Virus record (IMG/VR): IMGVR_UViG_3300011164_000019 | Span: 1-64,000 of that record | Reading direction: 5' to 3' (one strand) | DNA: 64,000 nucleotides | Source: a virus | Lineage: Duplodnaviria > Caudoviricetes | Shown: positions 1 to 62,829 of the stretch, one piece after another | Layout: the number at the start of each line of letters is the position of its first letter | Numbering within the stretch: the first letter of the stretch is position 1 | Notes under the pieces: model-generated | What the model was told of the DNA's origin: nothing | Seen by the model: the letters and a program-made list of their open reading frames with translations, nothing else | Databases searched by the model: none | Made by a program: the position numbers and the translations under genes

Positions 1-1188
1 TTAGGTTTCGCTTCGGGCCAATTTCGGGGCAATTTTCAATTTTCCCATCTCGGTCCAATCACCCTCACCATCGATCCAGCGTGCGTATCGAGAGAGGAGA
101 ATTTGTAACGAGTGACCCAGCTGTTTGGCGATGAAGGCAGGGGTCATCCCGGCCATCAGGCACATGGTTGCGTACGTGTGGCGCGCATTGTACGGAGGAC
201 GGTATCGAATACCCAGCGCCTTCAGGGTTGGACGCCACTGATGGTGCAGGTCACTCGTCTGCTGGATGAACTGATGCCCCTTGCTGGGTGGGAAGCAGTG
301 AGGGAATTCCTTGATCCTTCCCGATCCCTTGGCTCGCCGTTCGGCATACGCCTTGGCGAACTCCAGGGCATGCACAGCCCGGTCATTGAGCAGCACGTAC
401 CGATCCTTCTTGGTCTTGGTCCGGTCTTCCACTTCCTTGAGGGCAACTGTTCGACGAACCAGCACACGACGCTTCTCCAGCTCGACGGAATCCCACTGCA
501 GTGCAGCGATCTCGCCCAGGCGCATGCCTGTGTAGAAGGCGAACTCGAAGAAGGCAGCGTATATACCGCTTGGCCAGTGATCGGTGGCATACAGCCTGTC
601 GATGATCAGATCAGCCTCTTCCTGAGTGAACGGATCAATGGTCTTTTCCTTGGGGCGGGGAATGTCCAGATCGACCATGGGGTTCTCGGCGATGATCTTG
701 TCGCTCACAGCTGATTCCAGGATGGTGCTCAGCTTGTTCATCGCATTGGCTTTGACGCCATCGGTGGTCCAGGGAATGCGTACCACCAGTTCACGCATAA
801 ATGCCGTGGTCAGGGTGGTCATCGGTGTGGTGGCCAGGTACTTCATCCACCAGTGGTTGAGTACTGACCGGTAGTTGACCCGTGTGCCTTCCGCCAGCTC
901 ACGGCTATCGAGCCAGACCTGAGCGTACTGGCCAAAGGTGTAGCTGACGGCAGCCATGGTATTGGTGGAAGTGGGGAACAGCTCGGCATAGGCCTCGGGA
1001 GTGAGGGTGCCGTGCTTGGCCATCTGGACTACTTTATCTCGTAGACGGGATGCAGCCGTGATCCCCGCTTGCGTCGTGGGGTAGTCAAGGGTCTCGGAGC
1101 AGCGTTTTCCGTTCCAACTGAATCGGATACGGAGCGCACCGTAGTGGAGTTCAACTCCTGTGGGCAGTGCCACTGGCTTTCTTGCCAT
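1..1188 (-). CDS. int: Tyrosine recombinase (phage integrase) with N-terminal arm-binding domain
   Basis: Catalytic motifs TGMRLGE, YNARHTYAT, QLGHS, RYARW; SD GAGGT. Confidence 0.95.
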   Translation of the reverse strand: MARKPVALPTGVELHYGALRIRFSWNGKRCSETLDYPTTQAGITAASRLRDKVVQMAKHGTLTPEAYAELFPTSTNTMAAVSYTFGQYAQVWLDSRELAEGTRVNYRSVLNHWWMKYLATTPMTTLTTAFMRELVVRIPWTTDGVKANAMNKLSTILESAVSDKIIAENPMVDLDIPRPKEKTIDPFTQEEADLIIDRLYATDHWPSGIYAAFFEFAFYTGMRLGEIAALQWDSVELEKRRVLVRRTVALKEVEDRTKTKKDRYVLLNDRAVHALEFAKAYAERRAKGSGRIKEFPHCFPPSKGHQFIQQTSDLHHQWRPTLKALGIRYRPPYNARHTYATMCLMAGMTPAFIAKQLGHSLQILLSRYARWIDGEGDWTEMGKLKIAPKLARSET

Positions 1189-1379
1189 GTTTCAAACCTC
1201 GATCGGCTGTAGTAAATGCGGCCATTCATGCGGTTCCAGACCCCTTCAGGGATCTGCTTCCTTGCTCTTCTGGCTTCCAGAGAGCGGTCGGTGGTGCCCA
1301 GAATTTCAGCCATCTGCTGTTCGGTTACCTTGTCGGGATACCATTCTGGGAGTTCCTTGATCTGCTTTTCTACGGACAT
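1029..1379 (-). CDS. Excisionase-like small DNA-binding protein overlapping int
   Basis: wHTH-like N-terminus (EQQMAEILGTTDRSLEARRAR...GRIYYS); directly upstream of and overlapping int by 160 bp. Confidence 0.65.
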   Translation of the reverse strand: MSVEKQIKELPEWYPDKVTEQQMAEILGTTDRSLEARRARKQIPEGVWNRMNGRIYYSRSRFETWQESQWHCPQELNSTTVRSVSDSVGTENAAPRPLTTPRRKRGSRLHPVYEIK

Positions 1380-15785: not shown

Positions 15786-16892
15786 TCAGATGTTGTAGTG
15801 GATAACTTTCCCGTAGGGCGCAGTGAACTTCTTGTTATTGTGGATGACCCACAATACAGGACACTTCGGTGCTGGCATTACATGCCTGAACTCACCGTCA
15901 CTGAATACCAAGAGTGCAACTGGTTTGTTGTCTCTGGCCCACTGGATTACTTCTGAAACATTCGTACCACCACGTCCGTGGAACGTGACCTGTTGCAAGT
16001 CAGATACACTCTTGAGTACATCCTTCTTGTGGATGCGTGTATCAAACTGCAACAGAGTTATTTGCGATGGCTTCAGCTTTTTCATAATCCCATTTACTTC
16101 ACTGATGAAGCGACGGAAGTCTGAGTTGCTGACTGAGCCTGAAGTATCAACAGCAACGGCTATTTCACCGAGGGTAATGCCGTAGAGAGTTGGGAGAATG
16201 TGTTCAGGCATGAAACGGCGATTGGGCCGCTTCCAGGTGTAGTCCGTCTTGGCGAACTGATTGAAGAACTTCCGCAGTAACTTGTCCCACGGAAGAATCG
16301 GGTTGAGGTATTCATCCAGGAAGATCTGGATATCACCTGGAATGGTGCCTGGCTTGTCACCGCTCATGGCTGACTGCGTGGCAGCCCGCATGACGATATC
16401 GGTGATGTGCTGCTCGGCCTGTTTCTGCTGCTCAGGAGATTGAGGGCCTGGTGGCAGATCCTGCATGCGAGGCTGACCTGGATTGTCAGGCAGCAGGTCA
16501 TACACCTGCAGCGTGCTCATGCCCTTGAACTGGGAGTCCTTGAGGACCCAATCAGGCATCTTGAAGCCACGCTCCAGCAGCATCAGGTTGATGACGTGAT
16601 CGCCAGCGATGTTCCACTTGTCCGGGCAACGATCGCCACGACGCACGGTGTGCATCAGGGCAGGGTGCATGCACTCATGCACCAGCACGAAGATCCGCTC
16701 TTCTTCGGAGAGTGAGAGGAAGAATTGGGGGTTGATGCCGATGGTTGTGTCGTTCACATACGCATTCGGCTGAGTATCGTCAAAGACAATACGGAACGAA
16801 AAACAGAGGGTGGTGAAGAAAGCACTATCAGGCTTACTCATAAGGCCGATCTTGGCTTTGTCGAGAGCCTTATTGGCATCTTGCAATGACAT
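15786..16892 (-). CDS. Putative metallopeptidase with vWA domain
   Basis: HECMH (HExxH), WNIAGDHVIN, MIDAS DTSGS; start reassigned to 16892. Confidence 0.88.
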   Translation of the reverse strand: MSLQDANKALDKAKIGLMSKPDSAFFTTLCFSFRIVFDDTQPNAYVNDTTIGINPQFFLSLSEEERIFVLVHECMHPALMHTVRRGDRCPDKWNIAGDHVINLMLLERGFKMPDWVLKDSQFKGMSTLQVYDLLPDNPGQPRMQDLPPGPQSPEQQKQAEQHITDIVMRAATQSAMSGDKPGTIPGDIQIFLDEYLNPILPWDKLLRKFFNQFAKTDYTWKRPNRRFMPEHILPTLYGITLGEIAVAVDTSGSVSNSDFRRFISEVNGIMKKLKPSQITLLQFDTRIHKKDVLKSVSDLQQVTFHGRGGTNVSEVIQWARDNKPVALLVFSDGEFRHVMPAPKCPVLWVIHNNKKFTAPYGKVIHYNI

Positions 16893-16995
16893 GGTGAACT
16901 TCCTTTGAAGTTGATAGTTGCAACTGACCGGACAATAAAAGTCCAACTTGCAGGCGTAACTATCCTGCAAATTGAACTTCTAAAGTGTGCTGGGG

Positions 16996-17151
16996 TTACT
17001 TACGATTCCGACGAATCTCGGAACACTTCCTGTGACTGATAGGGGAACTTCCCCCCCGGTGCCTTCCGCAAATATCGCAAGTGCTGCGCAATGTATCTTC
17101 CAGTGATTTGCTTCGCAAAGTACTGGGTTTCCATTGCGCCTTACTACTCAC
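16996..17151 (-). CDS. Small Cys/His (zinc-finger-like) protein, 51 aa
   Basis: CDICGRHR...HRKCSEIR; GTG start overlapping csrA stop. Confidence 0.45.
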   Translation of the reverse strand: MSSKAQWKPSTLRSKSLEDTLRSTCDICGRHRGGSSPISHRKCSEIRRNRK

Positions 17152-17320
17152 TGACAACTTCCGATTTTTTCTTGTTCTTGATGTTATCCCGTTGGATCTC
17201 AATTTCTTTCGGGGCATCAATACCAATACGGGTTTGACCGTTCTGGGTACCAAGAATACGGACAACAATGTTGTCACCAATGTGGACTGCTTCACCTGCC
17301 TTGCGGGTAATTACTAGCAT
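17144..17320 (-). CDS. csrA: CsrA/RsmA-family translational regulator (58 aa; not in ORF track)
   Basis: MLVITRKAGEAVHIGDNIVVRILGTQNGQTRIGIDAPKEIEIQRDNIKNKKKSEVVSE aligns without gaps to CsrA; R6 and R44 kept; SD AAAGGAAG. Confidence 0.9.
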   Translation of the reverse strand: MLVITRKAGEAVHIGDNIVVRILGTQNGQTRIGIDAPKEIEIQRDNIKNKKKSEVVSE

Positions 17321-17406
17321 TACTACTTCCTTTCTACTACTTGGATTGAATTAAGTGTTTGCACTTAGGCATCGCTATTCCGTCTGATTATTCAGCGGAA
17401 CAGTCG

Positions 17407-17901
17407 TTATGTGTTGAGAGCCAACTGGGCTGTATTACCAGCGATCAGTTGTTTGGTGCGGTACATCTTTCCATACTCAACCTGGTTGTCCCAGGACGGT
17501 GGATCGACGGCCTCGTGGTGCCGCTTCAGAAGATCCTTTACGGCATCCAGCGAGTTGTGTTCTTCAATGACCTTTTCCAGGACCGAGGGGTGGATGTAGT
17601 AATCACTTCCATTAATGGTCTTGAGTGTAAGGTCGCCGGTTTCGGTGAAACGACAGTACTGCACACCCTCTTCATATTCGGAGCCTTTGGCCCAGTCCAT
17701 GTCGTAGGGGATGCCGGCTGACTGCAGCTCCTTGATGCAGTCCAGCTCTCCGTAGTTCACTTCTTCGAAACCCATGTAGTGAACTTCGTCGTTAAGGATG
17801 TCCTCCTCGTTGGGTTCCCCGTCATGCTTGATGGCGATTTCCTTGGCCTGCTCGAACAGCTCGGCAGGCACATAGAGGTACACGTAAGTACGATCGCCCA
17901 T
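17407..17901 (-). CDS. Hypothetical acidic protein
   Basis: In-operon ORF. Confidence 0.7.
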   Translation of the reverse strand: MGDRTYVYLYVPAELFEQAKEIAIKHDGEPNEEDILNDEVHYMGFEEVNYGELDCIKELQSAGIPYDMDWAKGSEYEEGVQYCRFTETGDLTLKTINGSDYYIHPSVLEKVIEEHNSLDAVKDLLKRHHEAVDPPSWDNQVEYGKMYRTKQLIAGNTAQLALNT

Positions 17902-17902
17902 G

Positions 17903-18916
17903 TCAGAACAACTCTTTGGCGTTCTTGGTGATCCATGCCTGGATGGACTTGTGGTTCATCAGGGCAGGGCTGCGCCGCACCATTTCACGCAGGGTGACGA
18001 CCTGGAACTCGATCGGCAGACGGGACACGAAGTCCATCAGTGGACCCGCGTTCTCATCGTTGGCGTTGTGGGCGATCGAGCCGGTCAGAGCAAACAGAAT
18101 GCTCGGTTCCTGAGGCACCGGCAGGGTGGTGGCCTGTTCCATCATCTGGTTCATGGTAGGCAGCCGGGAGTAGATCTCGGTGAAGGTACGGAACTCGCGT
18201 GCCACGCCTTCAGAGATGGTGCCAGCCAGCAGAGGAATGTCCTCGATACCGATCTGCTTGCCTTTGACCAGACGGTTGGCGAACTCCCAGGTACGGGGAC
18301 TGGCATAGGTGCAGTCGGTGTGATCGGGACTGAAGGTGTACAGCATGCCTGGCTTGAACTTGACGAAGCTGGTGATGCGGTGGTCGATACCATTCTTCAT
18401 GGCCCAGCCTTCGCACCAGTCGATGTGATCCACTGTGACTTCCATATGGATCAGGCGAGATTCCAGAGCCGTGCTCATCTCTTCGACGATGGCTCCGTCT
18501 GTCTCCAGGTTACCTGCACAGACGATGGCGACCTTCTTGTGCAGATGGTGAGTGCCGACCATGCGATCCAGCACGAGCTTGTAGGCAGCAGCCTGCACGC
18601 CACGCGGAGCACTGGTGAACTCATCCATGAACAACAACCAGCCTTCGTAGCCCTTTGGAACCTCATCCCCTTCGATGGGGAAGGTTTCCATGGGCACGTA
18701 GCGGCCACGTCCATTGGCAGTGTTGGGGAAGCCCAGCAGATCGGTTGGGTCGCACTGAGCAAGGCGTAGGTCGATGACCTTGAGGCCGTATTCCTTGGCG
18801 ATCTGGTGAACGATGGAAGACTTGCCCACAGCAGGGCTGCCCTTGACGATCGGGACCAGGCCGACCTTGATGCACTGCACGATCATGTCGTGTGCTTGGC
18901 TGAGTTTGACTTTCAT
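17903..18916 (-). CDS. MoxR-like AAA+ ATPase
   Basis: GSPAVGKS, LFMDEFTSA, AGN, STALESRL; near the vWA gene. Confidence 0.88.
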   Translation of the reverse strand: MKVKLSQAHDMIVQCIKVGLVPIVKGSPAVGKSSIVHQIAKEYGLKVIDLRLAQCDPTDLLGFPNTANGRGRYVPMETFPIEGDEVPKGYEGWLLFMDEFTSAPRGVQAAAYKLVLDRMVGTHHLHKKVAIVCAGNLETDGAIVEEMSTALESRLIHMEVTVDHIDWCEGWAMKNGIDHRITSFVKFKPGMLYTFSPDHTDCTYASPRTWEFANRLVKGKQIGIEDIPLLAGTISEGVAREFRTFTEIYSRLPTMNQMMEQATTLPVPQEPSILFALTGSIAHNANDENAGPLMDFVSRLPIEFQVVTLREMVRRSPALMNHKSIQAWITKNAKELF

Positions 18917-25198: not shown

Positions 25199-25224
25199 GG
25201 TTCACTCCTTGGTTGAGAACAAAT

Positions 25225-25245
25225 TCCGTCACTCCAGCGAAGCTG
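25225..25245 (-). promoter_or_regulatory. vRNAP hairpin promoter
   Basis: + (template) strand TCCGT-cactc-CAGC-GAA-GCTG. Confidence 0.75.
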
Positions 25246-25264
25246 TCTGACGAAAACGACGCAT

Positions 25265-25304
25265 AAATAAAAAGGCCCACTACCCCATGAGGGCAGCAGG
25301 CCTT
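25265..25304 (-). terminator. Intrinsic terminator after Drc-like gene
   Basis: AAGGCC...GGCCUU long hairpin plus U tract. Confidence 0.7.
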
Positions 25305-25324
25305 GGATGCAGCGGAGAACGGGC

Positions 25325-25594
25325 TTAGAAGCCGAGTTCGTTCTCCTTCACCTCTTTGTCGGCGAGCTGGAAGTCCAGCATGATCGCCTCCTGCATCTTC
25401 TGGATGGCCAGAGGATCAGAGGACAGACGCTTGAGCAGCGCAGCCTCGTAGGCCTTCGATTCCTTCAGGGAGATCGAACCGATCTTGCGACGGCCACCAT
25501 CCGGAGTCGGAAGGTAGATGTTGATGAAGCCTTGGGAGCGCCAGTTTTCGTTGGCAACTTGAGGCTGGGCATTGCGAGCGGTGTTGAACGCCAT
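25325..25594 (-). CDS. Drc/gp2-like ssDNA-binding cofactor of RNAP II
   Basis: FINIYLPTPDGGRRKIGSISL resembles LUZ7 Drc; early position upstream of RNAP1. Confidence 0.7.
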   Translation of the reverse strand: MAFNTARNAQPQVANENWRSQGFINIYLPTPDGGRRKIGSISLKESKAYEAALLKRLSSDPLAIQKMQEAIMLDFQLADKEVKENELGF

Positions 25595-25638
25595 GGTGAA
25601 TCTCCTTGCATTGGTCAGGTTGAGCGAAGGTGCTCGAT

Positions 25639-25660
25639 TCCATCTCTCCGGCGAAGCCGG
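25639..25660 (-). promoter_or_regulatory. vRNAP hairpin promoter
   Basis: TCCAT-ctct-CCGGC-GAA-GCCGG. Confidence 0.8.
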
Positions 25661-25696
25661 GCAGACGGTGGGAACGGGTAAAGCGTTGAGGCTGAC

Positions 25697-42772: not shown

Positions 42773-45700
42773 ATGGCCCAACTTCCTGAGCTTCCTGAAG
42801 ATATTCGTGGCATCGATCTGACGGATATCAAAAAGAACCAACTGGCTCAGGCCAGTGAATTCAAGCGTCAACTACTGGAGGCCAGGAAGCCTCAGGGAGT
42901 CCAACCGGATTCCCTTCTGAGTCAGCACGAGCAACGTGTAGCCGGTATGCAGGCAGAGAATGCCGAGTACATGGCCAAGCGTGCTCAGAAGCAGGAAGCC
43001 TTCGACAACAGCTGGGTCGGTCGTAGTGGTGTTGATCCAGACAGTTTCACTGCAGGTGTGATTGATGGTGGGGCCATGCTGACAGCAGGTGCCGGCTACT
43101 TGGCCGGTACTGTGCTGACTGCTGCTCCAAACACCCTGGCTGCCATTCAGGAGCTGGGCACCAGCGACGACGTGAAAGCAGCCTACACCCGGTTCAAGCA
43201 GGGTCAGGCCAGCGAAGCGGATATCGCGTTGCTGAACGAGAAGCAGGACCTGTTCACCACCAACCAGGAAGGGCTGGAGCGTGCCGATCACCTGCGCGAA
43301 GGCACTCGCGGGATCATGGACCTGTTCGACTGGAAGGGTGCGATCGATGCGCCTCAGCGTGAGCCTCTGCGCGAGGAGTTCGCCGAGGAAGCAGGTCCTG
43401 CTGTCGATCGACTGGCTCAGGCCTGGGAGCAGGTCAAGGAAGGCGAGTACACCGAAGCAGCCAAAGGCGCTGGCTGGGCACTCCCCAAGGTGGCTTACGA
43501 GATCGCCGAGAATGCGGTCCAGCATCCGGTCGGTGCAGTGACTCATGCGCTGGAGAACGCTCCACAGCTGGCAGCTGGTGTGGCAGGCAAGCTGCCGATG
43601 GCTGTATCTAACGCAGGCTATGCCCTGGATGAAGTCCGTCAGGGCATGGACAATTACGAGCAGGACAATGACGGTGCTCGCCCAACAGGCGGTGAGTTCC
43701 GCGAAATGCTGCTGCGTGCCGGTAGCCTGGCAGCTGCCGAGCACATTGCCGATACCCAGGTACTCAAGACCCTGACCTCCCCGGTGACCAAGACCGCCCA
43801 AGTTCTGCCGGAGAAGGCAGTTGGTGCATTGGCCAAGCCGGCGAAGGCTGCTGGCACGGTACTGGGTACAGGTGCAACCGAAGCGGTGACCGAAGCCTTT
43901 CAGACGTATCAGGAAGGTGAGATCAAGAACCGTGAAGCCTCGCCCATGGACATTGCCGAAGGTGCTCTGCTGGGTTTTGCAGCCGGTGGTGCTACGGCTG
44001 CTGCATCCAAGGCGCCAGCAGATCTGTTGGGCAGTACGGGTGAGAAGAAGGAACCGGAAGTCGAGAAGGCCAGTGAGACCGGCAACGTGTCCTCGCTGTT
44101 GCAACCGGGCGCCTACGCACCGGAGAAAGCAGCCAAGGCTCTGGCAGAACACAGCCTGAAGAACGAGGACGCTCAGGTCCGTCAGGACAACCTGACCAAG
44201 CTGGGTGAGATCCGTTCTGCCCTGGAAGATGAAGCCAAGGCTGAAGCCATGGTCGAGCGTATCCAGCAGCGCATGGAATCCGCTCCTCAGGAGCAACAGC
44301 CTCAACTGGAGGCTTTGCTGGCTCAGGCCACCGAGTCGCTGACTGCCCGTCGTGCTGCACTGGGTCTGCAGGATGTACCGGCTGCCGAGCGTAAAGAAGC
44401 ACTGGCCAAGCAGCTGGATCAGGTGAAGCAGGCAGAGGACTCGATAACCCAGCTGATGGAACCGGAGAAGCAGGATCTGTCCTCGCAGATCGAGCTGGCC
44501 GATACCGTACTCGAGAACGTCACCCCTGAAGTCCAGCAGACTGCCCGTAAGGCAGCCGAGCGTGTGGTCTCTCTGGCCATGGAATCGCCAGAAGCCCTGG
44601 ATGTGGAGGTGGCTACTCGCCTGGCCAGCAACATGGCCAACAGCCTCACCGAGCCTGAGCGTGTCGTGCTGCGTACCTTCGCCAAGGCCAAGGCACTGGC
44701 TCACCAGGTCAAAGGCCTGGAAGGCGTCAGCAGCGATATCTTCAACGGCAATCCGAAGGAAGGGTACAAGGGCCTCAACGAGTACAGCAGCAACGTGCGT
44801 CGTGCTCTGGCCTACAAGACTCCTGATCTGGAAGCCGCTCAGCACGAGATCGATGGCCTGGCCAAGTTCGTGGAGTCGCGCAAGGCCAAGCTGGCTGTGG
44901 CTCAGAAAGCCTTCGATGAAGTGGCCGGTACTCGGGATGACGGACAGCAGTGGCTACCTACCAGGTCCGGGACCTGGGTGCCTGCTGATCGCAAGTACAG
45001 CTACGACGAGATGTACGCGATGGGTGGTATGACCATCCACGGTGGATCTGGGAACCTGGTGGCCAATATCGCTCAGGAAACCGAAGCCCTGGAAGCCAGC
45101 CTGCAATCGCTGCAGGCACTGTACGCCATGAAGTCGGCTGCACCGGTACAAACAGCCGTGAATCAGCCGGAGGCTGCTGCACCTCAGGCCGTTGAGCCTG
45201 TTGAACAGAAGGCTCCAGTCCAGACACCGGAGCAGGAAGCCGGCATTGCCGAAGATGCCCCGGAAGCGGTGAAGTACCGCAAGACGAACAACCTCAAGCG
45301 TCTGTTCTCTCAGCAGCCAGGTAACCCGACAACCGGAACTCAGCGTCCGCTGGTGGCCACCGAGAACTTCCTGACCAAGCTCAGCCAGGGCGAAGTGAAC
45401 ACCCTGGATTACGTGCAGCAGGAAGACCTGAGCGAAGAGCAGCTGGGGCTGCCGAGTGCGTTCATCCGTACGGCCAAGGCCTGGATGCCGACCATCGAAG
45501 GCAACTTCTTCAAGCGGACCACTCAGGCCGGTCACAAGACCGACGCACGGGATCACTACTACAACGACTACACCCAGTACCTGCAGGATGAGCAGGGGCA
45601 GGTGGCTGAGAACGTGAAGACCGCCATTGCGGCTGCTGCGTTTGCTCATGTGGCTGACAACGGCGGTCAGACGCTGAACGACAACACCACCATCAACAAG

Positions 45701-48700
45701 ATCCTGGGCAAGGACAAGGATGCCTCGATCACCCCGGCAGCCAACCAGAAGCTGCGCAAGATCGGCACGCTGCGCAGTGCCCTGATCAACTCGCTGGGTC
45801 AGGCCGTGGTGCAGTCGCTGGGTTATCAGCTCAAGGGTGATGCCTCGCAGAGCGAGAAGGCCAAGCTGGAAGTGGCCCTGGGTGCTCAGGCACTGGCTCT
45901 GCTGCTGGATCAGGGCATTGTCGAGCAGACCACCCTCACCAAAGGTGAGCTGGATGACCTCAAGGGCGTGGACTTCAATGGCCAGATCAAGGCCATGCGT
46001 GCAGTCGCCAAGACTCAGGCCGATCGGGATGCCATCGACAGGTTGATCGAGTCCCGCAAGAACGAGGTGGCCTTCATTCGCTTCGTGACCAACAAGGACG
46101 GCGCCCTGACTCAGGAAGCTCAGGCGATTCGAGATGCCAGCAAGAATACAGGTAGTCTGTTCACCAAGCTGTTCGGCATCGAGACCGGTCCCCGTGAACC
46201 GAGCTTCAAGCCACTGAAGTACGACCAGAAGACGGCGAACAACTCCACCAAGCCGATCTCCGACAAGGAGCGTGCTGCGTTGGAGAAGGAAGCCAAGGCA
46301 CCCTACATCCTGCAAAAAGACATGTGGGCCGTGCTGGAGAAGATCGCCAACCCGGCGATGATTCTGCAGATGGCAGGCGTGCAGGATGAGGCGCTGGAGA
46401 CTCTGCACAAGACCAACCGTGACGGTGTGACCGCCAAGAACCAGGGCCTGATGCGCGAATGGGAACGTCTGGTGGCGTTCGTGGGCGATCTCAGCCGTCA
46501 GAAGGCTGGCCAGGACACCAAGTTCTACCTGATGCCGAGTGCCTGGAAGAACGATCGTGTGGGCCTGGATTCGGCCATCAACCCGCAAACCAGCAAGATT
46601 CATCGCTTCGTCATTGGCAAGCAGAGTGCCGAGACCGAGGTTCGCTGGACTGACGCCGACCAGTCGATGCTGGACGTATTCAAGCTGCGTGTGGCTGAAG
46701 GTCTGGGCATGAAGACCGACAAGCAGGACAACAAGCGTTCGTTGGCTGCCTACGAAGCCGAGATGCAGAAGCCGGTGTACCAAAATGCAGTGGCTGCCCT
46801 GCGTAAGGCTTTGCTGGATCAGGACCTGACCTCGGGCGAACAGCAGGCGATCGTCGAAGGCGTGAAGGCTGGCGGTGAGAACTTCCATTCGCTGTCCTCG
46901 CTGGTGGCCCAAGCCACCTACGAGAACGCCCGTGAGGCTGGGCAGCAGAAGTTCACCACCATGCTGCTGGCCGAAGTGGACGGCGTGACCAATGGCCCGA
47001 TGCTGGGTCACCTGCTGTTCGGTGCCTTCCATTCGATGCAGGATGCGATGGCTAGACTGAACAAAGGAGGTTTCTTCGAGACCGGTAATGCTTTCGAGCA
47101 ATACAACCTGTGGCGTGCAGCACCCGGTCAGAGTGACCTGTATGAGTCGACTGCCATCGACCTGAACGCGGTGGTGCAGGAGAAGTGGCAGGACAAGAAG
47201 TTGCAGCCTATGTACAGCGCGCTGTTTTACGTCACCGGCAAGCTGGACGACAAAGGGTCACCAACCAAGGCTGGCCGTAATCTGATGAAGCCTCCGGTGA
47301 CCAAGAGTGGTTACGGTGAAGGTCTGGGCAAGACCGTCGAAACCATGGCTGAGGATTTCATTCAGCAGGTCTACGACCACATCCAGGAGATCTCGGCAGG
47401 CAAGTCCAAGCTGGAGCTGCAACCGCTGCTGTCGTCTGTTCGTCTGCTGATCAGCAAGGCCGATGAGAAGGCGGCTGCAGAGTTGGACGTGGATATGCCG
47501 ATCGAGAGGGCGATGGAGTTCACCTTCACGAACCAGCAGTTCAAGGCATTGAAGTCCACCTACCTGAGCACGCTGGGTAGGGATATCACGGCCACCATCA
47601 AGGAAGCCTTTGGTCCGTTCACCGAGCGTCGTCAGGCCTTCAACCAGGCTGCCAACCTGGCATTCGACCTGTACCAGCAGCTGTATCAGTCCAAGCGTCG
47701 TGCCCTGATCGACCAGCTGATCGCCGAAGGCAAGATGGCTACGGACGCCAAGGGTGTTCCGCTGCATGACCTGACCAACAAGCAGGAAGCTGAGCTGCAG
47801 GCTTCGCTGACTGATGTGGCTCCGATCCTGCACACCGCATTCTCCAGTGCCAGCGATCAGCTGCAGGCCGGTATGCGTCTGGCCAAGCGAGACAAAGGCC
47901 TCAGTGATGAGGCCGCCTACCGCAACGAGGTGAAGTTCGGCAAGAAGGGCAAGAAGCCAATGGCTGGTTTGCGTGCCTTCGGCTACAAGACCGGCGAAGT
48001 AGGACCGGGCGTGTCCGGTGCCGTGGGTTCGGTTCACTCGACCGACGCTGCGATCTCGATCAATGCCGGTGCCGAGGTGGATTCGATCAACGTCCACGAT
48101 GCCCGTATCTACGGACTGAAGGATGTGCATGCGGGTGCCCGTAGCCTGAACAAGCAGACCTTCCTGCAGGCGCTGGAATACTCCCCGATGGACCAGATGC
48201 TGGCCACCCTGGAGCGTTCGATCAAAGGCCTGGCGGATGCACTGGCTCAGGAAAACGATGCAACCCTGAACGCTGGCGTGGCTTCGCTGCTGACCAAGAA
48301 AATCGCTTCGCTGAGCGACATTGAATATGACCTTATGGCCGATAGTGGTAAAGGGCTGATCCAATTTCAGCTGGATCGGCTCCGTGCTACCGCACTGGCT
48401 GCCGAATCCATGAAGCTGGAGATCCTGGCCAACCTGCAGGCGGTCGACCAGTACGCTTTCGAAGGTGGTGCCTACCAGGTCACCGAGCAGGATCGTGCAA
48501 AGGCCCAGCAAAAGCTGGAGGAGCGTAAGCAGCGCCCTGATGATGTAGCGGTCACTGAGGCAGCAAAGCAGATCGATGCACTGCTTGGCCAGAAAACTGC
48601 ACAGGCAAAGCTGGCTCCAGTGGTACAGAGCGAACCTACTCTGGTCGATGATGCCGATCTGGGCATTCCTGAGCGTCAGGAAGATCCTGTTGTAACCACC

Positions 48701-51700
48701 AGTGCCTGGGGTGAGTTGGGCAAGTCGCCGATCGAGCATGACAGTGAGCTGGTTCAGTTCTTCAAGAGCAACCCGCGGCCTTCGCTCAAGTATGTACTCA
48801 AGGCCCTCCGTTCGCGTATCGAAGTCACCAGCAACGGACGGACTCAGGAGTACAACCGCGAACTGTGGAAAGCCCTGGCCAAGCACGTCAATCCGGCGAT
48901 GAAGATCGTCTACGTCACGCCTGAGATGGCGATCCCGGAAGGTGTGGCCGAGAAGCAGGCACAGTCTGCCCGTGGTCTCTACAGCTTCAGCGATTCGATT
49001 GACACGCTGTACATCAAGAGCGATGCGTTCCGTCGTTCGGGCGTGACCACTGAACTGCTGATGCACGAGCTGGTTCACTCGGTGGTAGCCCGTACCATCG
49101 ATCTGGCCGAGCAGGGCAAGCCTCTGCCGGATACGGCTGAACTGGTGGCTGAACTGGGTGTGCTGCTGGAGCGCAGCCGTCAGCATGTGGCCGATAAGCC
49201 TGAACTGGCTCAGCGGTACAGCAATGCCCTGGCCAACGTGCAGGAGTTCGTGGCCTGGGGCATGACCAACCAGGGTTTCCAGCGTGATGTGCTGAACCAG
49301 TTCACCCTGCAGACCAAGACCTCGCGCAATGTGCTGGTCAAGGCCATGGAAGCCCTGACCAATGTGCTGCGTGACATTCTGTTCCGTGGTTCGGACAAGT
49401 CGGCACAGAAGATCCAGGTCACTGGCTTGAAGACGCTGCTGGCCAACGTCTCCGGTCTGATGGCGACGGCTGAACAGGCGCGTGAGGCCGTAGGTACTCA
49501 ACGCACGCTGGCCATGGAAGATCCGGTTCTGGATATGGACGTGGCTGATCTGTTCGATGGCCTGCGTAACACCGAGCAGCCCCTGGATGTTGGCTTCGAG
49601 AGTCACCTGCGTGATCTGCTGGATAACGTGGTGCGTCCGCTGCATGGTCCGTTTGGTGCCGTGCGTCTGGAAGCCTTGGACGATCAGGTGATCGGTGCCC
49701 GTGAGCGTTTCCTCAAGGCTCTGGCGACTGGCAAGGCACCGTTCGCTGCCAAACTCAGTGACGTGGTGAAGCTATCCGATCAGGAAGCGTTCCTGGCCGA
49801 GAGCATTGAAGTCGCCCTGCGTACTGCCCTGGAATCGAAGGATCGTTCGTCCTCGCTGGTCTACCGCGAGCTGAAGGGCCTGTACAACGAGATCAAGGCA
49901 TCGCTGCCGGTATCGGCATTCTTCGATGGCGACTGGACCCAGGCCAGTGATGAACAGAAGGCGGAGGCCCAAGCCCTGCGTGAGTTCTTCCTGGAGATCC
50001 CGGACGGGGAAGGGCAGTCCGACTACCTGAGCCGCTTCGCTGCTCTGGGTCTGGCCTACCGTCCGCTGTGGAAGCTGCTGGATCGATCGACTCAGCAAGA
50101 CACTCGTGTCCTGCGTGATCTGAGCTGGCTTGAGCGTCTGCAGGCTCTGGTTGAGCGTGCCATGGCCTATCTGGCCGGCAAGTGGACGCACACCTATGCC
50201 GGTCAGCAGGCCAACGACAAGCTCAAGACCCTGGTCGGTGAGCTGGTGGATATCGAGGCCAAGTACCGGGAAAAGGCTGCTCGTCCGAACAACCAGTGGA
50301 TCGAGATGGCCGAGAACGCTCTGGCCGGTGTTCAGGGCAAGGCCAAGGACATGATCGACCAGGTGGCCAAGTCGGACATGGTGCGTAACTCGAAGGTCAG
50401 CGGTGTTCGTCTGATGGGTCGAGTGGCCAGCCTGGCTGCCGATGACCGCCTGGAAGCGGTGGTGGATGCCGGTAACCAGCTGCGTGACCGTCTGTTCAAG
50501 GGACGCCAGGGTCTGATGGCTGGCATGTTCAACGAGATGAAAGGGCCGAACGAGATCATGTTGGCCCTGCTCAACTTCGCCAAGCGCAATGAACAGGAGC
50601 GTAAGCACCTAATCAACTGGACCCGTGATACGGCCTTGGAGAGCTTCGCCAATAAAGGCAAAGACCTAACTGCCAAGGACAAGGACGCCATGGCTCTGCT
50701 GCTGCGTGCTGATCTGGCTTCGCTGCTGGATTACGGCTACTCGCTGGAGGAGCTGCAGCAACTGCTGAGTCCCAACGGCAGCCTGCAGCAGCGGATTGCT
50801 GAATTGGGCAAGCAGCTCAAGACCTCGACTCATGCAGCCATGTACCTGCGTCGTGCCGAGGCTCTGGGCAAATACATGGCCACCGGCAAGGCATCGATCG
50901 ACAACCTGATGCTCAACGCGGACAACATCGCTCGCATGCTGGGCACCAAGGATGCACACAGCATTCCGGATGCTGAGCTGGATCGGGTACGTCCGCTGAT
51001 CGATCAGCTGGCTTCGCTGTACGCCCTGGCCAATGCCAACGAGTCTGACAAGGAGCGGATCTCCAACGTCCTGGCGACCGAGCTACAGCGTACCGATGGT
51101 GGTAACGGGGTGACCTTCGTTCTGAAGATGCACCGTGCCATGCAGCAGGAAGCCAAGGAAAAGCTGTTCGAGAACAGTGAGGCCTTGTTCACCAAGGGCT
51201 ACACACCGGAGATCCACAACCCGCACACCGAGGTACTGGCTGCCACCGAGGAAGAGGGCGAGGCACTGGTACGCCAGGGCTTCCAGCGTGTGGTCGGCAA
51301 CCCGTTGAACCAGGATGCCGATGACCTGGATAAGCGTGCCAAGCACCTCTACATCCTCAAGGGCCGTGGCATGCAGCAGCGTCTGACCGGTGCCCTGTCC
51401 TATACAGGTGAGCGTGCCAAGGGCAGTCGCAAGCATGGTGGGATCGTCAACACGATCACCGGTAGCCTGAACACTCATAACGTCCAGGTCACTCAGCGAC
51501 TGGCTCATGCCAAGCGCGTGCGTGAGGAGATGGCGATTCAGCAGGGCAAGCCGATGGGTGGGGTCCACATGGTCCCTGTACTTAATGCTGCCGGCGAGAT
51601 CGTCAACTACCGCTACGTGATGAGCAACAAGGCACGGGATTCGCTGCTGGAGCGAACCAATGCGTTCGATACGCTGCTGGGTACGCTGCATGGCAACGTG

Positions 51701-53020
51701 TTCGACAAGCAGGCCTCGCGTGAGCAGAACGCCCAAGTGGTCAAGGCCTTGTTCGATCAGTGGAATGCTGACAAGAACGATCGCCGTGACGCCTACATCA
51801 TGGTGGGTCCGGACAGCAGCGATGCTGAAGGTGCAGAGACCTGGCGTCTGCTGCCACACCACACTCAGGAAGCGATTCGTCAGGTGTGGAAGGGCAACAA
51901 CATGATGGTGCGCAACGATCAGATCGACCTGATCGCCGGTTACCGCAAGTACAGCCTGGCTGACATGTTCGACAAGCAGGATCGTACGACCAAGGGTATG
52001 AAGAACCTGCTCAAGCATCAGGAAGATGAACGCAACATGCTGGAGCAGATGACCGTCTGGCTGTTGCAGGACTTCTTCGGGCTGGGTGACAAGGCGGCAT
52101 TGCGTGTTCGCCAGGCAGAGGACTTCTGGCAGGCGGTGGTACAGGAAGTGAAGGATATCGTGGTGGTACGGTCGGGTGTGACCTTGTTCTGGAACGTGGT
52201 CAGCAACATGACTGTACTGTTGTGGCAGGGTGTTCCGATCAAGGATCTGATGCGGAATCACTGGGTGGCGTGGCGTGGTGCAGTCAACTATCGGAAGGAT
52301 TCCGAAGAGCTGTTCCGTCTGGAAGCAGCATTGTCGACTGGCACGTCTGGGGATGCGAAGGCTACACAGCAGCGTATTCGCCAATTGCAGGATTCTCTGG
52401 CACGTAACCCGGCCAAGGAACTGATTGATGCGGGGATGTTGCCGACCATCGTCGAAGACGTGGCCTTGGAAGAAGACCCTTACTCCTATCGCAGCAAGCT
52501 GAAGGAGAAGGTGGATCAGTACACCAGCAAGCTCAACCCCACGGTCAAGCAAGCGGCTGCGTTCGTCTACATGGCTCCAGGTACTCCGTTGCACACGGCG
52601 ATGAGCCAGGCCACTCAGTACTCGGACTTCGTGGCTCGCTATACGCTGTATCAGCACCTGATCAGCGACAAGAAGGCGCCGAAATCCAAGCAGGAAGCGT
52701 TGAAGCGGATCTCCGACAGCTTCGTCAACTACGACGTACCGTCGCACCGCCACATGCAGTACCTGAATGACATGGGCTTGCTCATGTTCACCAAGTACTA
52801 CCTGCGGATTCAGAAGGTGATCATGCAGATGTTCCGGGAGCATCCGGCTCGGGCGATCATGATGGTGACCCTGGATATCTACCTGAGCGGCATGCAGACC
52901 ATCGTCGACTCCTCGATGTGGGGTCGCCTGGGGAATCCGCTGGAGTGGGGTGCCTTGCAGTACCCCGGCACGCTGGATGAGCTGGCCACCATCAAGGGAA
53001 TGATGAACCTGTTCAAGTGA
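42773..53020 (+). CDS. Virion-encapsidated RNA polymerase (vRNAP), 3415 aa
   Basis: EVDGVTNGP (motif A), RNLMKPPVTKSGYG (motif B), VHDA (motif C); size. Confidence 0.97.
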   Translation: MAQLPELPEDIRGIDLTDIKKNQLAQASEFKRQLLEARKPQGVQPDSLLSQHEQRVAGMQAENAEYMAKRAQKQEAFDNSWVGRSGVDPDSFTAGVIDGGAMLTAGAGYLAGTVLTAAPNTLAAIQELGTSDDVKAAYTRFKQGQASEADIALLNEKQDLFTTNQEGLERADHLREGTRGIMDLFDWKGAIDAPQREPLREEFAEEAGPAVDRLAQAWEQVKEGEYTEAAKGAGWALPKVAYEIAENAVQHPVGAVTHALENAPQLAAGVAGKLPMAVSNAGYALDEVRQGMDNYEQDNDGARPTGGEFREMLLRAGSLAAAEHIADTQVLKTLTSPVTKTAQVLPEKAVGALAKPAKAAGTVLGTGATEAVTEAFQTYQEGEIKNREASPMDIAEGALLGFAAGGATAAASKAPADLLGSTGEKKEPEVEKASETGNVSSLLQPGAYAPEKAAKALAEHSLKNEDAQVRQDNLTKLGEIRSALEDEAKAEAMVERIQQRMESAPQEQQPQLEALLAQATESLTARRAALGLQDVPAAERKEALAKQLDQVKQAEDSITQLMEPEKQDLSSQIELADTVLENVTPEVQQTARKAAERVVSLAMESPEALDVEVATRLASNMANSLTEPERVVLRTFAKAKALAHQVKGLEGVSSDIFNGNPKEGYKGLNEYSSNVRRALAYKTPDLEAAQHEIDGLAKFVESRKAKLAVAQKAFDEVAGTRDDGQQWLPTRSGTWVPADRKYSYDEMYAMGGMTIHGGSGNLVANIAQETEALEASLQSLQALYAMKSAAPVQTAVNQPEAAAPQAVEPVEQKAPVQTPEQEAGIAEDAPEAVKYRKTNNLKRLFSQQPGNPTTGTQRPLVATENFLTKLSQGEVNTLDYVQQEDLSEEQLGLPSAFIRTAKAWMPTIEGNFFKRTTQAGHKTDARDHYYNDYTQYLQDEQGQVAENVKTAIAAAAFAHVADNGGQTLNDNTTINKILGKDKDASITPAANQKLRKIGTLRSALINSLGQAVVQSLGYQLKGDASQSEKAKLEVALGAQALALLLDQGIVEQTTLTKGELDDLKGVDFNGQIKAMRAVAKTQADRDAIDRLIESRKNEVAFIRFVTNKDGALTQEAQAIRDASKNTGSLFTKLFGIETGPREPSFKPLKYDQKTANNSTKPISDKERAALEKEAKAPYILQKDMWAVLEKIANPAMILQMAGVQDEALETLHKTNRDGVTAKNQGLMREWERLVAFVGDLSRQKAGQDTKFYLMPSAWKNDRVGLDSAINPQTSKIHRFVIGKQSAETEVRWTDADQSMLDVFKLRVAEGLGMKTDKQDNKRSLAAYEAEMQKPVYQNAVAALRKALLDQDLTSGEQQAIVEGVKAGGENFHSLSSLVAQATYENAREAGQQKFTTMLLAEVDGVTNGPMLGHLLFGAFHSMQDAMARLNKGGFFETGNAFEQYNLWRAAPGQSDLYESTAIDLNAVVQEKWQDKKLQPMYSALFYVTGKLDDKGSPTKAGRNLMKPPVTKSGYGEGLGKTVETMAEDFIQQVYDHIQEISAGKSKLELQPLLSSVRLLISKADEKAAAELDVDMPIERAMEFTFTNQQFKALKSTYLSTLGRDITATIKEAFGPFTERRQAFNQAANLAFDLYQQLYQSKRRALIDQLIAEGKMATDAKGVPLHDLTNKQEAELQASLTDVAPILHTAFSSASDQLQAGMRLAKRDKGLSDEAAYRNEVKFGKKGKKPMAGLRAFGYKTGEVGPGVSGAVGSVHSTDAAISINAGAEVDSINVHDARIYGLKDVHAGARSLNKQTFLQALEYSPMDQMLATLERSIKGLADALAQENDATLNAGVASLLTKKIASLSDIEYDLMADSGKGLIQFQLDRLRATALAAESMKLEILANLQAVDQYAFEGGAYQVTEQDRAKAQQKLEERKQRPDDVAVTEAAKQIDALLGQKTAQAKLAPVVQSEPTLVDDADLGIPERQEDPVVTTSAWGELGKSPIEHDSELVQFFKSNPRPSLKYVLKALRSRIEVTSNGRTQEYNRELWKALAKHVNPAMKIVYVTPEMAIPEGVAEKQAQSARGLYSFSDSIDTLYIKSDAFRRSGVTTELLMHELVHSVVARTIDLAEQGKPLPDTAELVAELGVLLERSRQHVADKPELAQRYSNALANVQEFVAWGMTNQGFQRDVLNQFTLQTKTSRNVLVKAMEALTNVLRDILFRGSDKSAQKIQVTGLKTLLANVSGLMATAEQAREAVGTQRTLAMEDPVLDMDVADLFDGLRNTEQPLDVGFESHLRDLLDNVVRPLHGPFGAVRLEALDDQVIGARERFLKALATGKAPFAAKLSDVVKLSDQEAFLAESIEVALRTALESKDRSSSLVYRELKGLYNEIKASLPVSAFFDGDWTQASDEQKAEAQALREFFLEIPDGEGQSDYLSRFAALGLAYRPLWKLLDRSTQQDTRVLRDLSWLERLQALVERAMAYLAGKWTHTYAGQQANDKLKTLVGELVDIEAKYREKAARPNNQWIEMAENALAGVQGKAKDMIDQVAKSDMVRNSKVSGVRLMGRVASLAADDRLEAVVDAGNQLRDRLFKGRQGLMAGMFNEMKGPNEIMLALLNFAKRNEQERKHLINWTRDTALESFANKGKDLTAKDKDAMALLLRADLASLLDYGYSLEELQQLLSPNGSLQQRIAELGKQLKTSTHAAMYLRRAEALGKYMATGKASIDNLMLNADNIARMLGTKDAHSIPDAELDRVRPLIDQLASLYALANANESDKERISNVLATELQRTDGGNGVTFVLKMHRAMQQEAKEKLFENSEALFTKGYTPEIHNPHTEVLAATEEEGEALVRQGFQRVVGNPLNQDADDLDKRAKHLYILKGRGMQQRLTGALSYTGERAKGSRKHGGIVNTITGSLNTHNVQVTQRLAHAKRVREEMAIQQGKPMGGVHMVPVLNAAGEIVNYRYVMSNKARDSLLERTNAFDTLLGTLHGNVFDKQASREQNAQVVKALFDQWNADKNDRRDAYIMVGPDSSDAEGAETWRLLPHHTQEAIRQVWKGNNMMVRNDQIDLIAGYRKYSLADMFDKQDRTTKGMKNLLKHQEDERNMLEQMTVWLLQDFFGLGDKAALRVRQAEDFWQAVVQEVKDIVVVRSGVTLFWNVVSNMTVLLWQGVPIKDLMRNHWVAWRGAVNYRKDSEELFRLEAALSTGTSGDAKATQQRIRQLQDSLARNPAKELIDAGMLPTIVEDVALEEDPYSYRSKLKEKVDQYTSKLNPTVKQAAAFVYMAPGTPLHTAMSQATQYSDFVARYTLYQHLISDKKAPKSKQEALKRISDSFVNYDVPSHRHMQYLNDMGLLMFTKYYLRIQKVIMQMFREHPARAIMMVTLDIYLSGMQTIVDSSMWGRLGNPLEWGALQYPGTLDELATIKGMMNLFK

Positions 53021-62379: not shown

Positions 62380-62530
62380 GGTGACCTCGAAAACGACGCA
62401 TATATAAAAGGGGATCTCCCCTGTGCCTTCGGCTCACTCGTCACAGGCTCGAACCCCCTTCAAAACCCTGACCTGATCCGAGGCGCGAACGCAGCACAAG
62501 GCGCACGCAGGCGCAGCCGAGTACGCCGCC

Positions 62531-62641
62531 AGTGCGGAGGTTCGCAACGAGGATCTGGGAAGGAGGAGGTGGAGCTAGAACTGAGGACCAGTTCCTGGAC
62601 TAGAGAGCGGCGCGCAGTGTAAGGAGGTGTTTCAGCTGAAA
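62531..62641 (+). ncRNA. Candidate GGA-rich Csr/Rsm-titrating RNA segment
   Basis: Nine GGA in 62536-62625; GAACTG-AGGAC-CAGTTC hairpin; boundaries unknown. Confidence 0.3.
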
Positions 62642-62829
62642 AATTGACTTGGATCAACTGGCTATTAGCCATCTCCCCGAGTCGATGAATGGTTACAGCA
62701 ACGTCGTATCCGCACTATCGGCTCGCAAGCTCGCCTCGTGCTGCACTCCGCTGCAGTAACCGTTCTTCCTTGAAATCACACTGAACCTCTTCTCAATGGT
62801 TCGTCACCGAACGCCCGAGAGGGCGTCTG

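Follow-up and report, generated by a model that had tools for sequence, protein, structure and literature searches.

A divergent CsrA homologue and a linked, conserved RNA element in the replication arm of a temperate N4-like phage of Stutzerimonas stutzeri

The window analyzed here, the first 64 kb (64,000 nucleotides, nt) of the 74,640-bp IMG/VR record IMGVR_UViG_3300011164_000019 (Duplodnaviria; Caudoviricetes), which is classed as a provirus and estimated to be complete, carries on its minus strand an open reading frame (ORF) of 58 amino acids (aa) for a homologue of the CsrA/RsmA proteins. The gene, referred to as csrA, sits in the middle/replication arm of an N4-like phage, between the genes of phage RNA polymerase (RNAP) II and those of the helicase and DNA polymerase, and it is directly followed by a conserved, non-coding RNA element (Table 1). 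It starts with an ATG, ends in the double stop TAG TAA, and is preceded by the Shine-Dalgarno (SD) sequence AAAGGAAG at 17333-17326, 5 nt from the start codon. An earlier note on this DNA had called the SD good. The motif is indeed present, but it is generic, as a GGA lies within the SD of 40 of the 42 genes of the arm, and a GGA-bearing SD was rejected as a pointer to targets of the phage CsrA for the same reason.

The earlier note had claimed a CsrA homologue over the full core of the family, and this was confirmed. A search against PF02599 (CsrA), named there as a check, gave 72.6 bits for the ORF (cut-off 27; E = 2.6e-20) and covered nearly the whole model (positions 1-51 of 53), and a repeat of the search on the genome gave 71.3 bits. 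The ORF was also matched by PHROG 9500, a "CsrA-like regulator". With phmmer against PDB, gapless alignments over residues 1-50/54 were obtained with RsmE (2JPP), the E. coli CsrA (1Y00), and the P. aeruginosa RsmA (1VPZ and 7YR6), and the Yersinia RsmA (2BTI) was another gapless partner. Residue by residue, the PDB alignments bore out the motif pattern quoted in the note, its R44, and the occurrence of QRDNI in place of HREEI. The columns that were invariant in an alignment of 43 sequences (M1, L2, R6, I34, A36, P37, and R44) were all present in the phage CsrA, while its I4, K7, I40, I42, and I47 were conservative equivalents of L4, R7, V40, V42, and I47. Residue 43 was a Q, where most proteobacterial proteins have an H. 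An AlphaFold2 model built on the same alignment reached a predicted local distance difference test score (pLDDT) of more than 92 for residues 1-40. In a Foldseek search against PDB, its top 15 matches were all CsrA, RsmA, or RsmE chains, with template modeling (TM) scores of 0.74-0.76, root-mean-square deviations of 1.6-2.0 A, and identities of 44-50%, and the superposition of the monomer model spanned 48 residues. A helix was modeled at residues 47-49 only (one turn), and residues 51-58 were predicted to be disordered. The family match is far beyond what chance would be expected to produce, and from the 44-50% identity to proteins solved as dimers we infer that the phage CsrA forms a domain-swapped homodimer.

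The DNA of 26 related loci was recovered, representing 12 distinct csrA alleles in two phage clades. Among the alleles of the window's clade, dS (synonymous divergence) reached up to 0.20 while dN (non-synonymous divergence) was at most 0.015, with pairwise differences of up to seven synonymous and at most two non-synonymous changes. Between the two clades, 31 of 174 nt (18%) differed and dN/dS was 0.33. The gene also retained its position in more than 25 related contigs from many samples. In every contig, the genes of the MoxR-like ATPase and the 164-aa ORF were found to one side of it and those of the DUF2201/VWA protein, the DNA polymerase, and a Dda-like helicase to the other, with csrA and all flanking genes on one strand. 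These patterns indicate that csrA is maintained under purifying selection, and together with the family match they identify 17144-17320 as a real, selected gene for a divergent CsrA/RsmA-family protein.

The divergence was evident in each collection searched. The best cellular CsrA, from a metagenome-assembled genome of the Pseudomonadales found among species-representative genomes, was 57% identical, and the best from a sequenced phage was at most 53% identical among the matches listed for 50,697 records. A word-indexed search of 5.8 billion proteins returned 11 clusters at 95-100% identity and four at 78-81%, and nothing else more than 60% identical to the phage CsrA. The C-terminal tail reads KNKKKSEVVSE in the window and KKVKREVVSE in the sister clade. 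These comparisons characterize the phage CsrA as a divergent family member and not as an equivalog of the housekeeping gene. The earlier note had supposed that the changes after R44 might let the protein escape RsmY and RsmZ, a suggestion that found no support: position 43 is Q, L, or H within the phage clade and varies across the 43-sequence alignment as well, and variability in the family has been described as a property of the C-terminus (PMC7366521). Furthermore, RsmQ, which is the homologue from a mobile element that has been studied best and is encoded by the plasmid pQBR103 in Pseudomonas fluorescens SBW25, binds GGA or AnGGA at the tops of hairpins as well as the motifs of RsmY and RsmZ (PMC9928087).

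Directly past the csrA stop lies the 212-nt element, within a spacer of 251 nt that extends to the ATG of the DUF2201/VWA gene. It is a candidate 3' untranslated region, attenuator, or CsrA-binding RNA. The element is the most unusual feature of the locus, and the earlier note mentions neither it nor the integrating N4-like character of the carrier nor the published record of phage csrA. Its mean column identity was 96% among 14 distinct variants from both clades, while 18% of the csrA nucleotides differ between the clades. When the 20-kb arm was aligned for nine genomes, the nucleotide diversity (pi) in the 3' half of the element was 0.009, compared to a mean of 0.112. The 3' half was thereby among the 13 lowest of 1,729 alignment windows (top 1%), level with the cores of the RNA polymerase, DNA polymerase, and helicase genes, while other intergenic regions of the arm had values of 0.05-0.36. 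The element includes a 44-aa ORF (17000-17134, minus strand) that was not accepted as a gene, since many relatives have an in-frame TAG at its codon 8. The sense RNA of 16925-17143 (219 nt) had a predicted minimum free energy of -82.4 kcal/mol (z = -5.6), and none of 200 shuffles was as low; its antisense gave -70.8 kcal/mol (z = -4.1). At the 3' end, the terminal hairpin and its U-tract probably constitute an intrinsic terminator or an RNase III-type processing site, with which the csrA unit would end. The arms of this hairpin contain two GGA. Two relatives (L006 and L010) carry an inserted 219-aa gene immediately past the U-tract, so that the element stays attached to csrA. In another (L025), an unrelated 6-bp hairpin takes the place of a 5-bp hairpin located close to the 5' end of the element. 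A second copy of the element was not found in the genome, and no match was obtained in the 50,697 phage records. In IMG/VR, it was found in three csrA-bearing relatives only, and a metagenome scan for its core returned the known 74.5-kb contig plus one chance 20-mer, and nothing else.

The element is also enriched in GGA, with eight in 212 nt (top 2% of windows). The spacer as a whole contains nine, compared to an average of 4.2 for 251-nt stretches of the genome (mononucleotide shuffle, p = 0.011), and the ninth lies in the AAAGGAAG that serves as SD of the DUF2201/VWA gene. The nucleotides of the GGA were invariant at 23 of 24 positions, compared to 171 of 212 columns overall (p = 0.03), and GGA was kept even in the segment that is replaced in L025. 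Five GGA passed a loose test for location in a 5-7-nt loop (top 1.4% of windows). That the element is a CsrA-bound RNA is suggested by these patterns and falls only a little short of being probable.

A second GGA-dense patch was observed on the plus strand at 62531-62641, within the gap 62380-62829, where nine GGA occur in about 95 nt; the region still contains 5-7 GGA per 95 nt in relatives. As a sponge it is a weak candidate, since no other part of the gap (81-84% identity overall) is conserved less and since it runs antisense to the genes on either side. The neighboring 62380-62530 is well conserved, and its minus strand ends in GGGGAGAUCCCC followed by UUUUAUAUAU; a structured RNA that has a terminator of its own may be encoded here on the minus strand.

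Upstream of csrA, the leader was moderately conserved (pi about 0.09). Among its 17 distinct variants, the GGA of the SD was kept in all 17 and an upstream GGA (17381-17379) in 16, with GGG in L027. Directly past the stop codon that ends the 164-aa gene, a strong hairpin was predicted at 17372-17405, and pairing with UUCCG buries the upstream GGA within it; hence only the GGA of the SD is predicted to be accessible in the leader. The DUF2201/VWA gene on the other side starts with the ATG at 16892, and gene callers use the equivalent ATG in relatives. In the Pantoea phage G19, the ATPase gene directly adjoins the VWA gene, and the 164-aa gene, csrA, and the RNA element therefore represent an insertion between two core genes. 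In the N4-like Vibrio phage pVa5 (L019), which is without csrA, a cold-shock gene of the CspD type (7283-7489), for another small RNA-binding protein, is located just past the same MoxR-like ATPase gene; accessory genes for RNA-binding proteins may thus be acquired at this slot more generally. The 219-aa gene mentioned above, with no Pfam match on record, occupies differing intergenic sites in relatives (8759-9418 in L002, 756-1415 in L027, 10460-11119 in L006, and 10457-11116 in L010), either before the 164-aa gene or right past the hairpin linked to csrA. In this it resembles a free-standing mobile gene, and it is absent from these sites in the window. In several relatives, HNH/NUMOD4 homing-endonuclease genes interrupt the gene of the family-A DNA polymerase, leaving it in two or three pieces (13641-17800 in L004, 13640-16967 in L005, and 14340-17848 in L006), whereas the window has an uninterrupted copy (10829-13522, 897 aa).

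Table 1. Features of the csrA locus and of the carrier genome, in coordinates of the window.
Feature	Position	Strand	Basis
Gene of the csrA/rsmA family, 58 aa including a basic C-terminal tail	17144..17320	minus	PF02599, PDB alignments, AlphaFold2 model, Foldseek, selection
Leader between the 164-aa gene and csrA, 86 nt	17321..17406	minus	Sequence, alignment, fold
164-aa gene	17407..17901	minus	ORF; PHROG 31558 (unknown function); position kept in relatives
MoxR-like AAA ATPase, core N4-like replication-arm gene	17903..18916	minus	PHROG 1297; tblastn to N4-like phages
DUF2201 metallopeptidase-like and VWA-like protein, 368 aa	15786..16892	minus	PF13203, PF09967
Conserved, non-coding, structured, GGA-enriched RNA, 212 nt, directly past the csrA stop	16932..17143	minus	Conservation, fold, GGA count
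19-bp hairpin followed by UUUUAUUGU	16932..16985	minus	Fold of -25.5 kcal/mol, z = -7.4
3,415-aa ORF, read as giant virion RNA polymerase	42773..53020	plus	Size and N4-like rest of the genome
Tyrosine integrase and 116-aa ORF	1..1379	minus	PHROG 1; PF00589 in relatives; junctions

The carrier itself was characterized from its gene content and its ends. Its capsid region shared 71-73% nucleotide identity with the Pseudomonas phage LUZ7 and the Litunavirus group, and N4-type genes were found for RNAP II, the ATPase, the VWA protein, the helicase, the DNA polymerase, the primase, rIIA/B, and ribonucleotide reductase. The RNAP II genes matched PF00940 in the replication arm of relatives, and the ATPase matched N4-like phages in tblastn. 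The giant ORF is a putative virion RNA polymerase, read as such from its size and the N4-like genome context. Together, these features assign the carrier to the N4-like phages (Schitoviridae). In this 20-kb early/middle arm, the most conserved 100-nt windows of all were located at 25281-25520 (pi 0.002-0.012), a peak that spans the intergenic 25199-25306 into the adjoining 25307-25681.

The integrase ORF lies at the edge of the record (1-1188), is called as 340 aa (1-1023) in relatives, and matched PHROG 1 (E = 1.4e-55) and, in relatives, PF00589. In exact look-ups, the 340-aa form and the 116-aa ORF were matched, and the 395-aa reading was not. The 116-aa ORF (1029-1379) had no family match; it is placed like an excisionase, and its reading as such follows from position and resemblance only. 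In a free-phage contig of 74,540 bp, the integrase is interior and the two ends of the record are adjacent. Downstream of the integrase, about 65 nt were common to all contigs compared (L066, L068, and L069 against L067 and L071), ending in ...CACCATGCAGTTC, and the core of the attachment site is located about 65 nt from the integrase. Past this shared segment, two contigs continued into phage DNA, while three contigs from other samples continued into a 63% GC gene of the ABC-F family beginning MQFGAKPLFENV. The 410 readable residues of this ABC-F (YbiT-like) ATPase were 100% identical to the protein of Stutzerimonas stutzeri A1501, and the junction was seen on the integrase side only. The integrase and the exact phage-host junctions identify the phage as temperate. 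They also indicate that it inserts into the 5' end of the ABC-F gene, to which it supplies a replacement start and N-terminus (..LISTANITMQF), and that the host is S. stutzeri or a very close relative. The Pseudomonas-type host setting assumed in the earlier note was therefore appropriate, S. stutzeri being a member of the Pseudomonas family. Its picture of a switch between motility with type III secretion and biofilm with type VI secretion was not retained, as it belongs to P. aeruginosa biology and is not simply transferable to S. stutzeri.

Close relatives of the phage were located inside contigs of 284 kb and 335 kb in two NCBI assemblies (JAOCAE010000006.1 and SPFI01000013.1). The phage was not found among species-representative genomes. 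A megablast of 5 kb against the 50,697 phage records gave no match, indicating that the collection includes no close cultured relative. Additionally, PF02599 had no match even at E = 1 in LUZ7, the Litunavirus VL3, the Pantoea phage G19, or the Vibrio phage pVa5. Of 89 tblastn matches to CsrA in sequenced phages, none of the best 60 was N4-like by name or length, and a literature search found no report that ties CsrA to the Schitoviridae except incidentally.

The reading that we favor, with moderate confidence in it as a whole, is that the window encodes a divergent CsrA of a temperate N4-like S. stutzeri phage, which is expressed during the lytic phase, is linked to an RNA, and is active in trans. 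The protein would act as a homodimer, in which strand 1 of one chain and strand 5, with R44, of the other would clamp a GGA in RNA. Expression of csrA would take place in lytic growth or upon induction and not from the silent prophage; this timing is proposed because of the position in the replication arm, the co-directional neighbors, and the lack of an own sigma-70-like promoter. The first RNA partner would be the candidate element transcribed right behind csrA. Binding there might buffer or autoregulate CsrA, or it might tune read-through into the downstream replication genes, the latter being proposed because the terminal hairpin has two GGA in its arms. In trans, the protein would add RsmA-like activity and repress host mRNAs with an accessible GGA at the ribosome-binding site, and it may compete for host sponges of the RsmY/RsmZ type. 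An interaction with the host Rsm proteins is plausible, since the host species, to which the laboratory strain A1501 belongs, has been reported (as P. stutzeri) to carry RsmA plus RsmN (PMC7366521).

Several observations weigh against this reading. The scores of the ORF were below the cut-offs of both NCBIfam equivalog models for CsrA (65.4 bits against 73 for NF002469, and 64.3 against 70.1 for TIGR00202), and most of the usual C-terminal helix is predicted to be gone. No sigma-70-like promoter was found on the coding (minus) strand at 16700-17600 in a scan that is blind to phage-polymerase promoters, and the lytic timing is what we infer from the setting. For the element, the GGA statistics are modest (p about 0.01-0.03), the consensus fold places only two or three of the eight GGA in loops, and the small hairpins UGC-GGAAG-GCA and CAC-AGGAA-GUG, when folded alone, were no more stable than shuffles. 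The GGA density, one per 26 nt, is about half of that of RsmY, RsmZ, and CsrB. The alignment, at 96% identity, offered too little variation for covariation and yielded no compensatory pairs; the only changes were one-sided and wobble-compatible, besides the one hairpin-for-hairpin replacement in L025. In Rfam, 16700-17500 had no match to a sponge family on either strand, with two chance-level matches to microRNAs (E > 2). A GGA-dense RNA as a general companion of phage csrA was also rejected, since eight other loci were at or below their local background. Finally, H43 is replaced by Q in the phage protein; H43 is typical of the proteobacterial proteins and matters for the binding of RsmQ, where H43A lowers RNA binding (PMC9928087).

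In another reading, CsrA would work in trans only, on mRNAs of the host or the phage, and the element would be unrelated to it, serving as an operon boundary with a terminator or RNase III-type hairpin and with signals for the replication genes behind it, such as a promoter for RNAP II. We regard this as a serious alternative that is nevertheless less than probable. The strongest features of the element are its 19-bp hairpin with a U-tract and its site just upstream of the DUF2201-helicase-polymerase block. Moreover, the GGA enrichment is only about twofold, 40% of all GGA of the genome pass the same loose loop test, and the results for other phage csrA genes and for Rfam sponge families point in the same direction. 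An operon boundary fits less well with the extent of conservation: what terminators and processing sites usually preserve is their shape and not their sequence, whereas here about 130 nt are near-invariant, including unpaired stretches, to a degree not reached by the other intergenic regions of the arm. In addition, the inserted 219-aa gene separates the element from the downstream operon and leaves it joined to csrA, and all eight GGA are kept, even within the 26-nt segment that is replaced in L025.

At the other extreme, the locus might represent a self-contained miniature Csr system, in which CsrA and a dedicated, co-transcribed GGA RNA would form a unit, rising CsrA would alter termination or processing at the hairpin, with its two GGA, and so serve as a timer of the replication genes, and the RNA would buffer the amount of CsrA that is free to act on the Rsm regulon of the host. 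Such a system is rather unlikely.

A different role would be that of a lysogenic-conversion gene, with csrA expressed from the prophage to shift motility, biofilm, and secondary metabolism under Gac/Rsm control, as RsmQ does. The phage integrates, most of the known csrA-positive Pseudomonas phages are temperate with csrA near the cI region, RsmQ provides a precedent (PMC9928087), and the strong hairpin past the element would insulate the csrA unit. However, the coding strand lacks an upstream sigma-70-like promoter, and csrA is embedded between core N4-like replication genes and not beside the integrase or a repressor. On these grounds, we consider lysogenic conversion unlikely, and lytic-phase expression remains our preferred reading. 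Less likely again is that the protein is chiefly a decoy for RsmY/RsmZ that would free the host RsmA, or a counter-defense repressor of the translation of host defenses. RsmA represses CRISPR-Cas in Serratia, and Campa et al. proposed that phage homologues of RsmA dampen CRISPR-Cas and observed a correlated presence of CsrA in phages and hosts (PMC8450108). The binding of RsmQ to RsmY/RsmZ motifs (PMC9928087) agrees with such a role, and the extra lysines of the tail (KNKKK in the window, KKVKR in its sister clade) could raise general affinity for RNA. These functions are compatible with lytic expression and trans activity, and not exclusive of them. That the frame is decaying or arose by chance and has no function, for which a length of only 58 aa and the scores below the equivalog cut-offs could be cited, is given almost no weight and is refuted as far as sequence data can show by the full-length family match with all invariant residues kept, the strong synonymous excess in 12 alleles, and a position conserved over dozens of samples.

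Among known systems, RsmQ is the best working model for how the phage CsrA might act. It forms homodimers as well as heterodimers with the Rsm proteins of its host, whose behavior it switches (PMC9928087). Both are CsrA proteins of mobile elements in hosts of the Pseudomonas family, and both have the core of strands 1-5 with R44. In contrast, RsmQ is plasmid-borne and has a VHRE/D motif, where the phage protein has IQRD (ILRD or IHRD in relatives) and is also shorter, with a basic tail that is predicted to be disordered. The phage protein is encoded in a replication operon with a conserved RNA element attached. Closer in setting are the csrA genes of the RsmM type in temperate P. aeruginosa phages, including AUS531phi, phi297, YMC11/07/P54, and F116-like phages (PMC7366521), whose hosts belong to the same bacterial family. 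These alleles, annotated as "bci" or carbon storage regulator, were among the closest phage matches listed from the 50,697 records, with 44-53% identity in the core. They differ in encoding about 123 aa with an extended, structured C-terminus, in being carried by lambda-like siphoviruses with csrA near cI and not by an N4-like podovirus, and in having no GGA-dense conserved element downstream. In an E. coli phage, the knock-down of the csrA homologue PTXU04_00028 resulted in smaller plaques in a CRISPRi-ART screen (PMC11879866). This was the only phage csrA found with a loss-of-function phenotype, in another phage and host than here, and it shows that phage csrA genes can contribute to lytic fitness.

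The chromosomal RsmA, RsmE, and CsrA proteins (1VPZ, 7YR6, 2JPP, and 1Y00) share the fold with the phage protein (TM about 0.75) as well as L2, R6, I/V40, I/V42, R44, and I47. At 44-50% identity, the phage protein differs from them by H43Q, E45D, and E46N and by the replacement of the helix past residue 47 with KNKKKSEVVSE. RNAs controlled by CsrA include the sponges RsmY, RsmZ, and CsrB, and long leaders with multiple sites, such as that of the E. coli pgaA. The element resembles them in being a structured RNA of about 200 nt with several GGA, a terminator end, and a further GGA in the next SD, and the two GGA of its terminal hairpin recall the CsrA-dependent remodeling of termination. Unlike the sponges, it has no Rfam match and no sigma-70-like promoter, about half of their GGA density, and few GGA in loops; it is a candidate for binding.

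For the carrier, the closest comparison is a set of 54 genomes of lysogenic N4-like viruses from metagenomes and Moraxella genomes, which were proposed from sequence data in 2023, chiefly for Moraxella (PMC10654107). They likewise combine an N4-type genome with an integrase and occur as integrated copies in bacterial contigs. CsrA is mentioned zero times in that report. The present phage differs in its host, Stutzerimonas, and in an attachment site that is nucleotide-exact at the 5' end of an ABC-F gene. This site and host add to the thin evidence for temperate N4-like phages. A survey in 2020 had found csrA in 30 of 2,517 phages, most often in Pseudomonas phages (PMC7366521), and phage csrA was catalogued again with IMG/VR data in 2021 (PMC8450108). 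Hence, phage-borne csrA is already known, from these surveys, in which it proved widespread, and from the knock-down reported in 2025, as are integrating N4-like viruses from 2023. What is new here is the N4-like carrier, its host and attachment site, the minimal basic-tailed protein, and above all the linked, ultra-conserved, structured RNA. If this RNA were unrelated to CsrA, the locus would simply add one more allele of phage csrA; if the protein binds it, the locus would represent a compact, phage-encoded, Csr-like module. The locus offers a compact test case, in which a minimal CsrA of 58 aa is linked to an extremely conserved candidate RNA partner in a phage that is both lytic and lysogenic.

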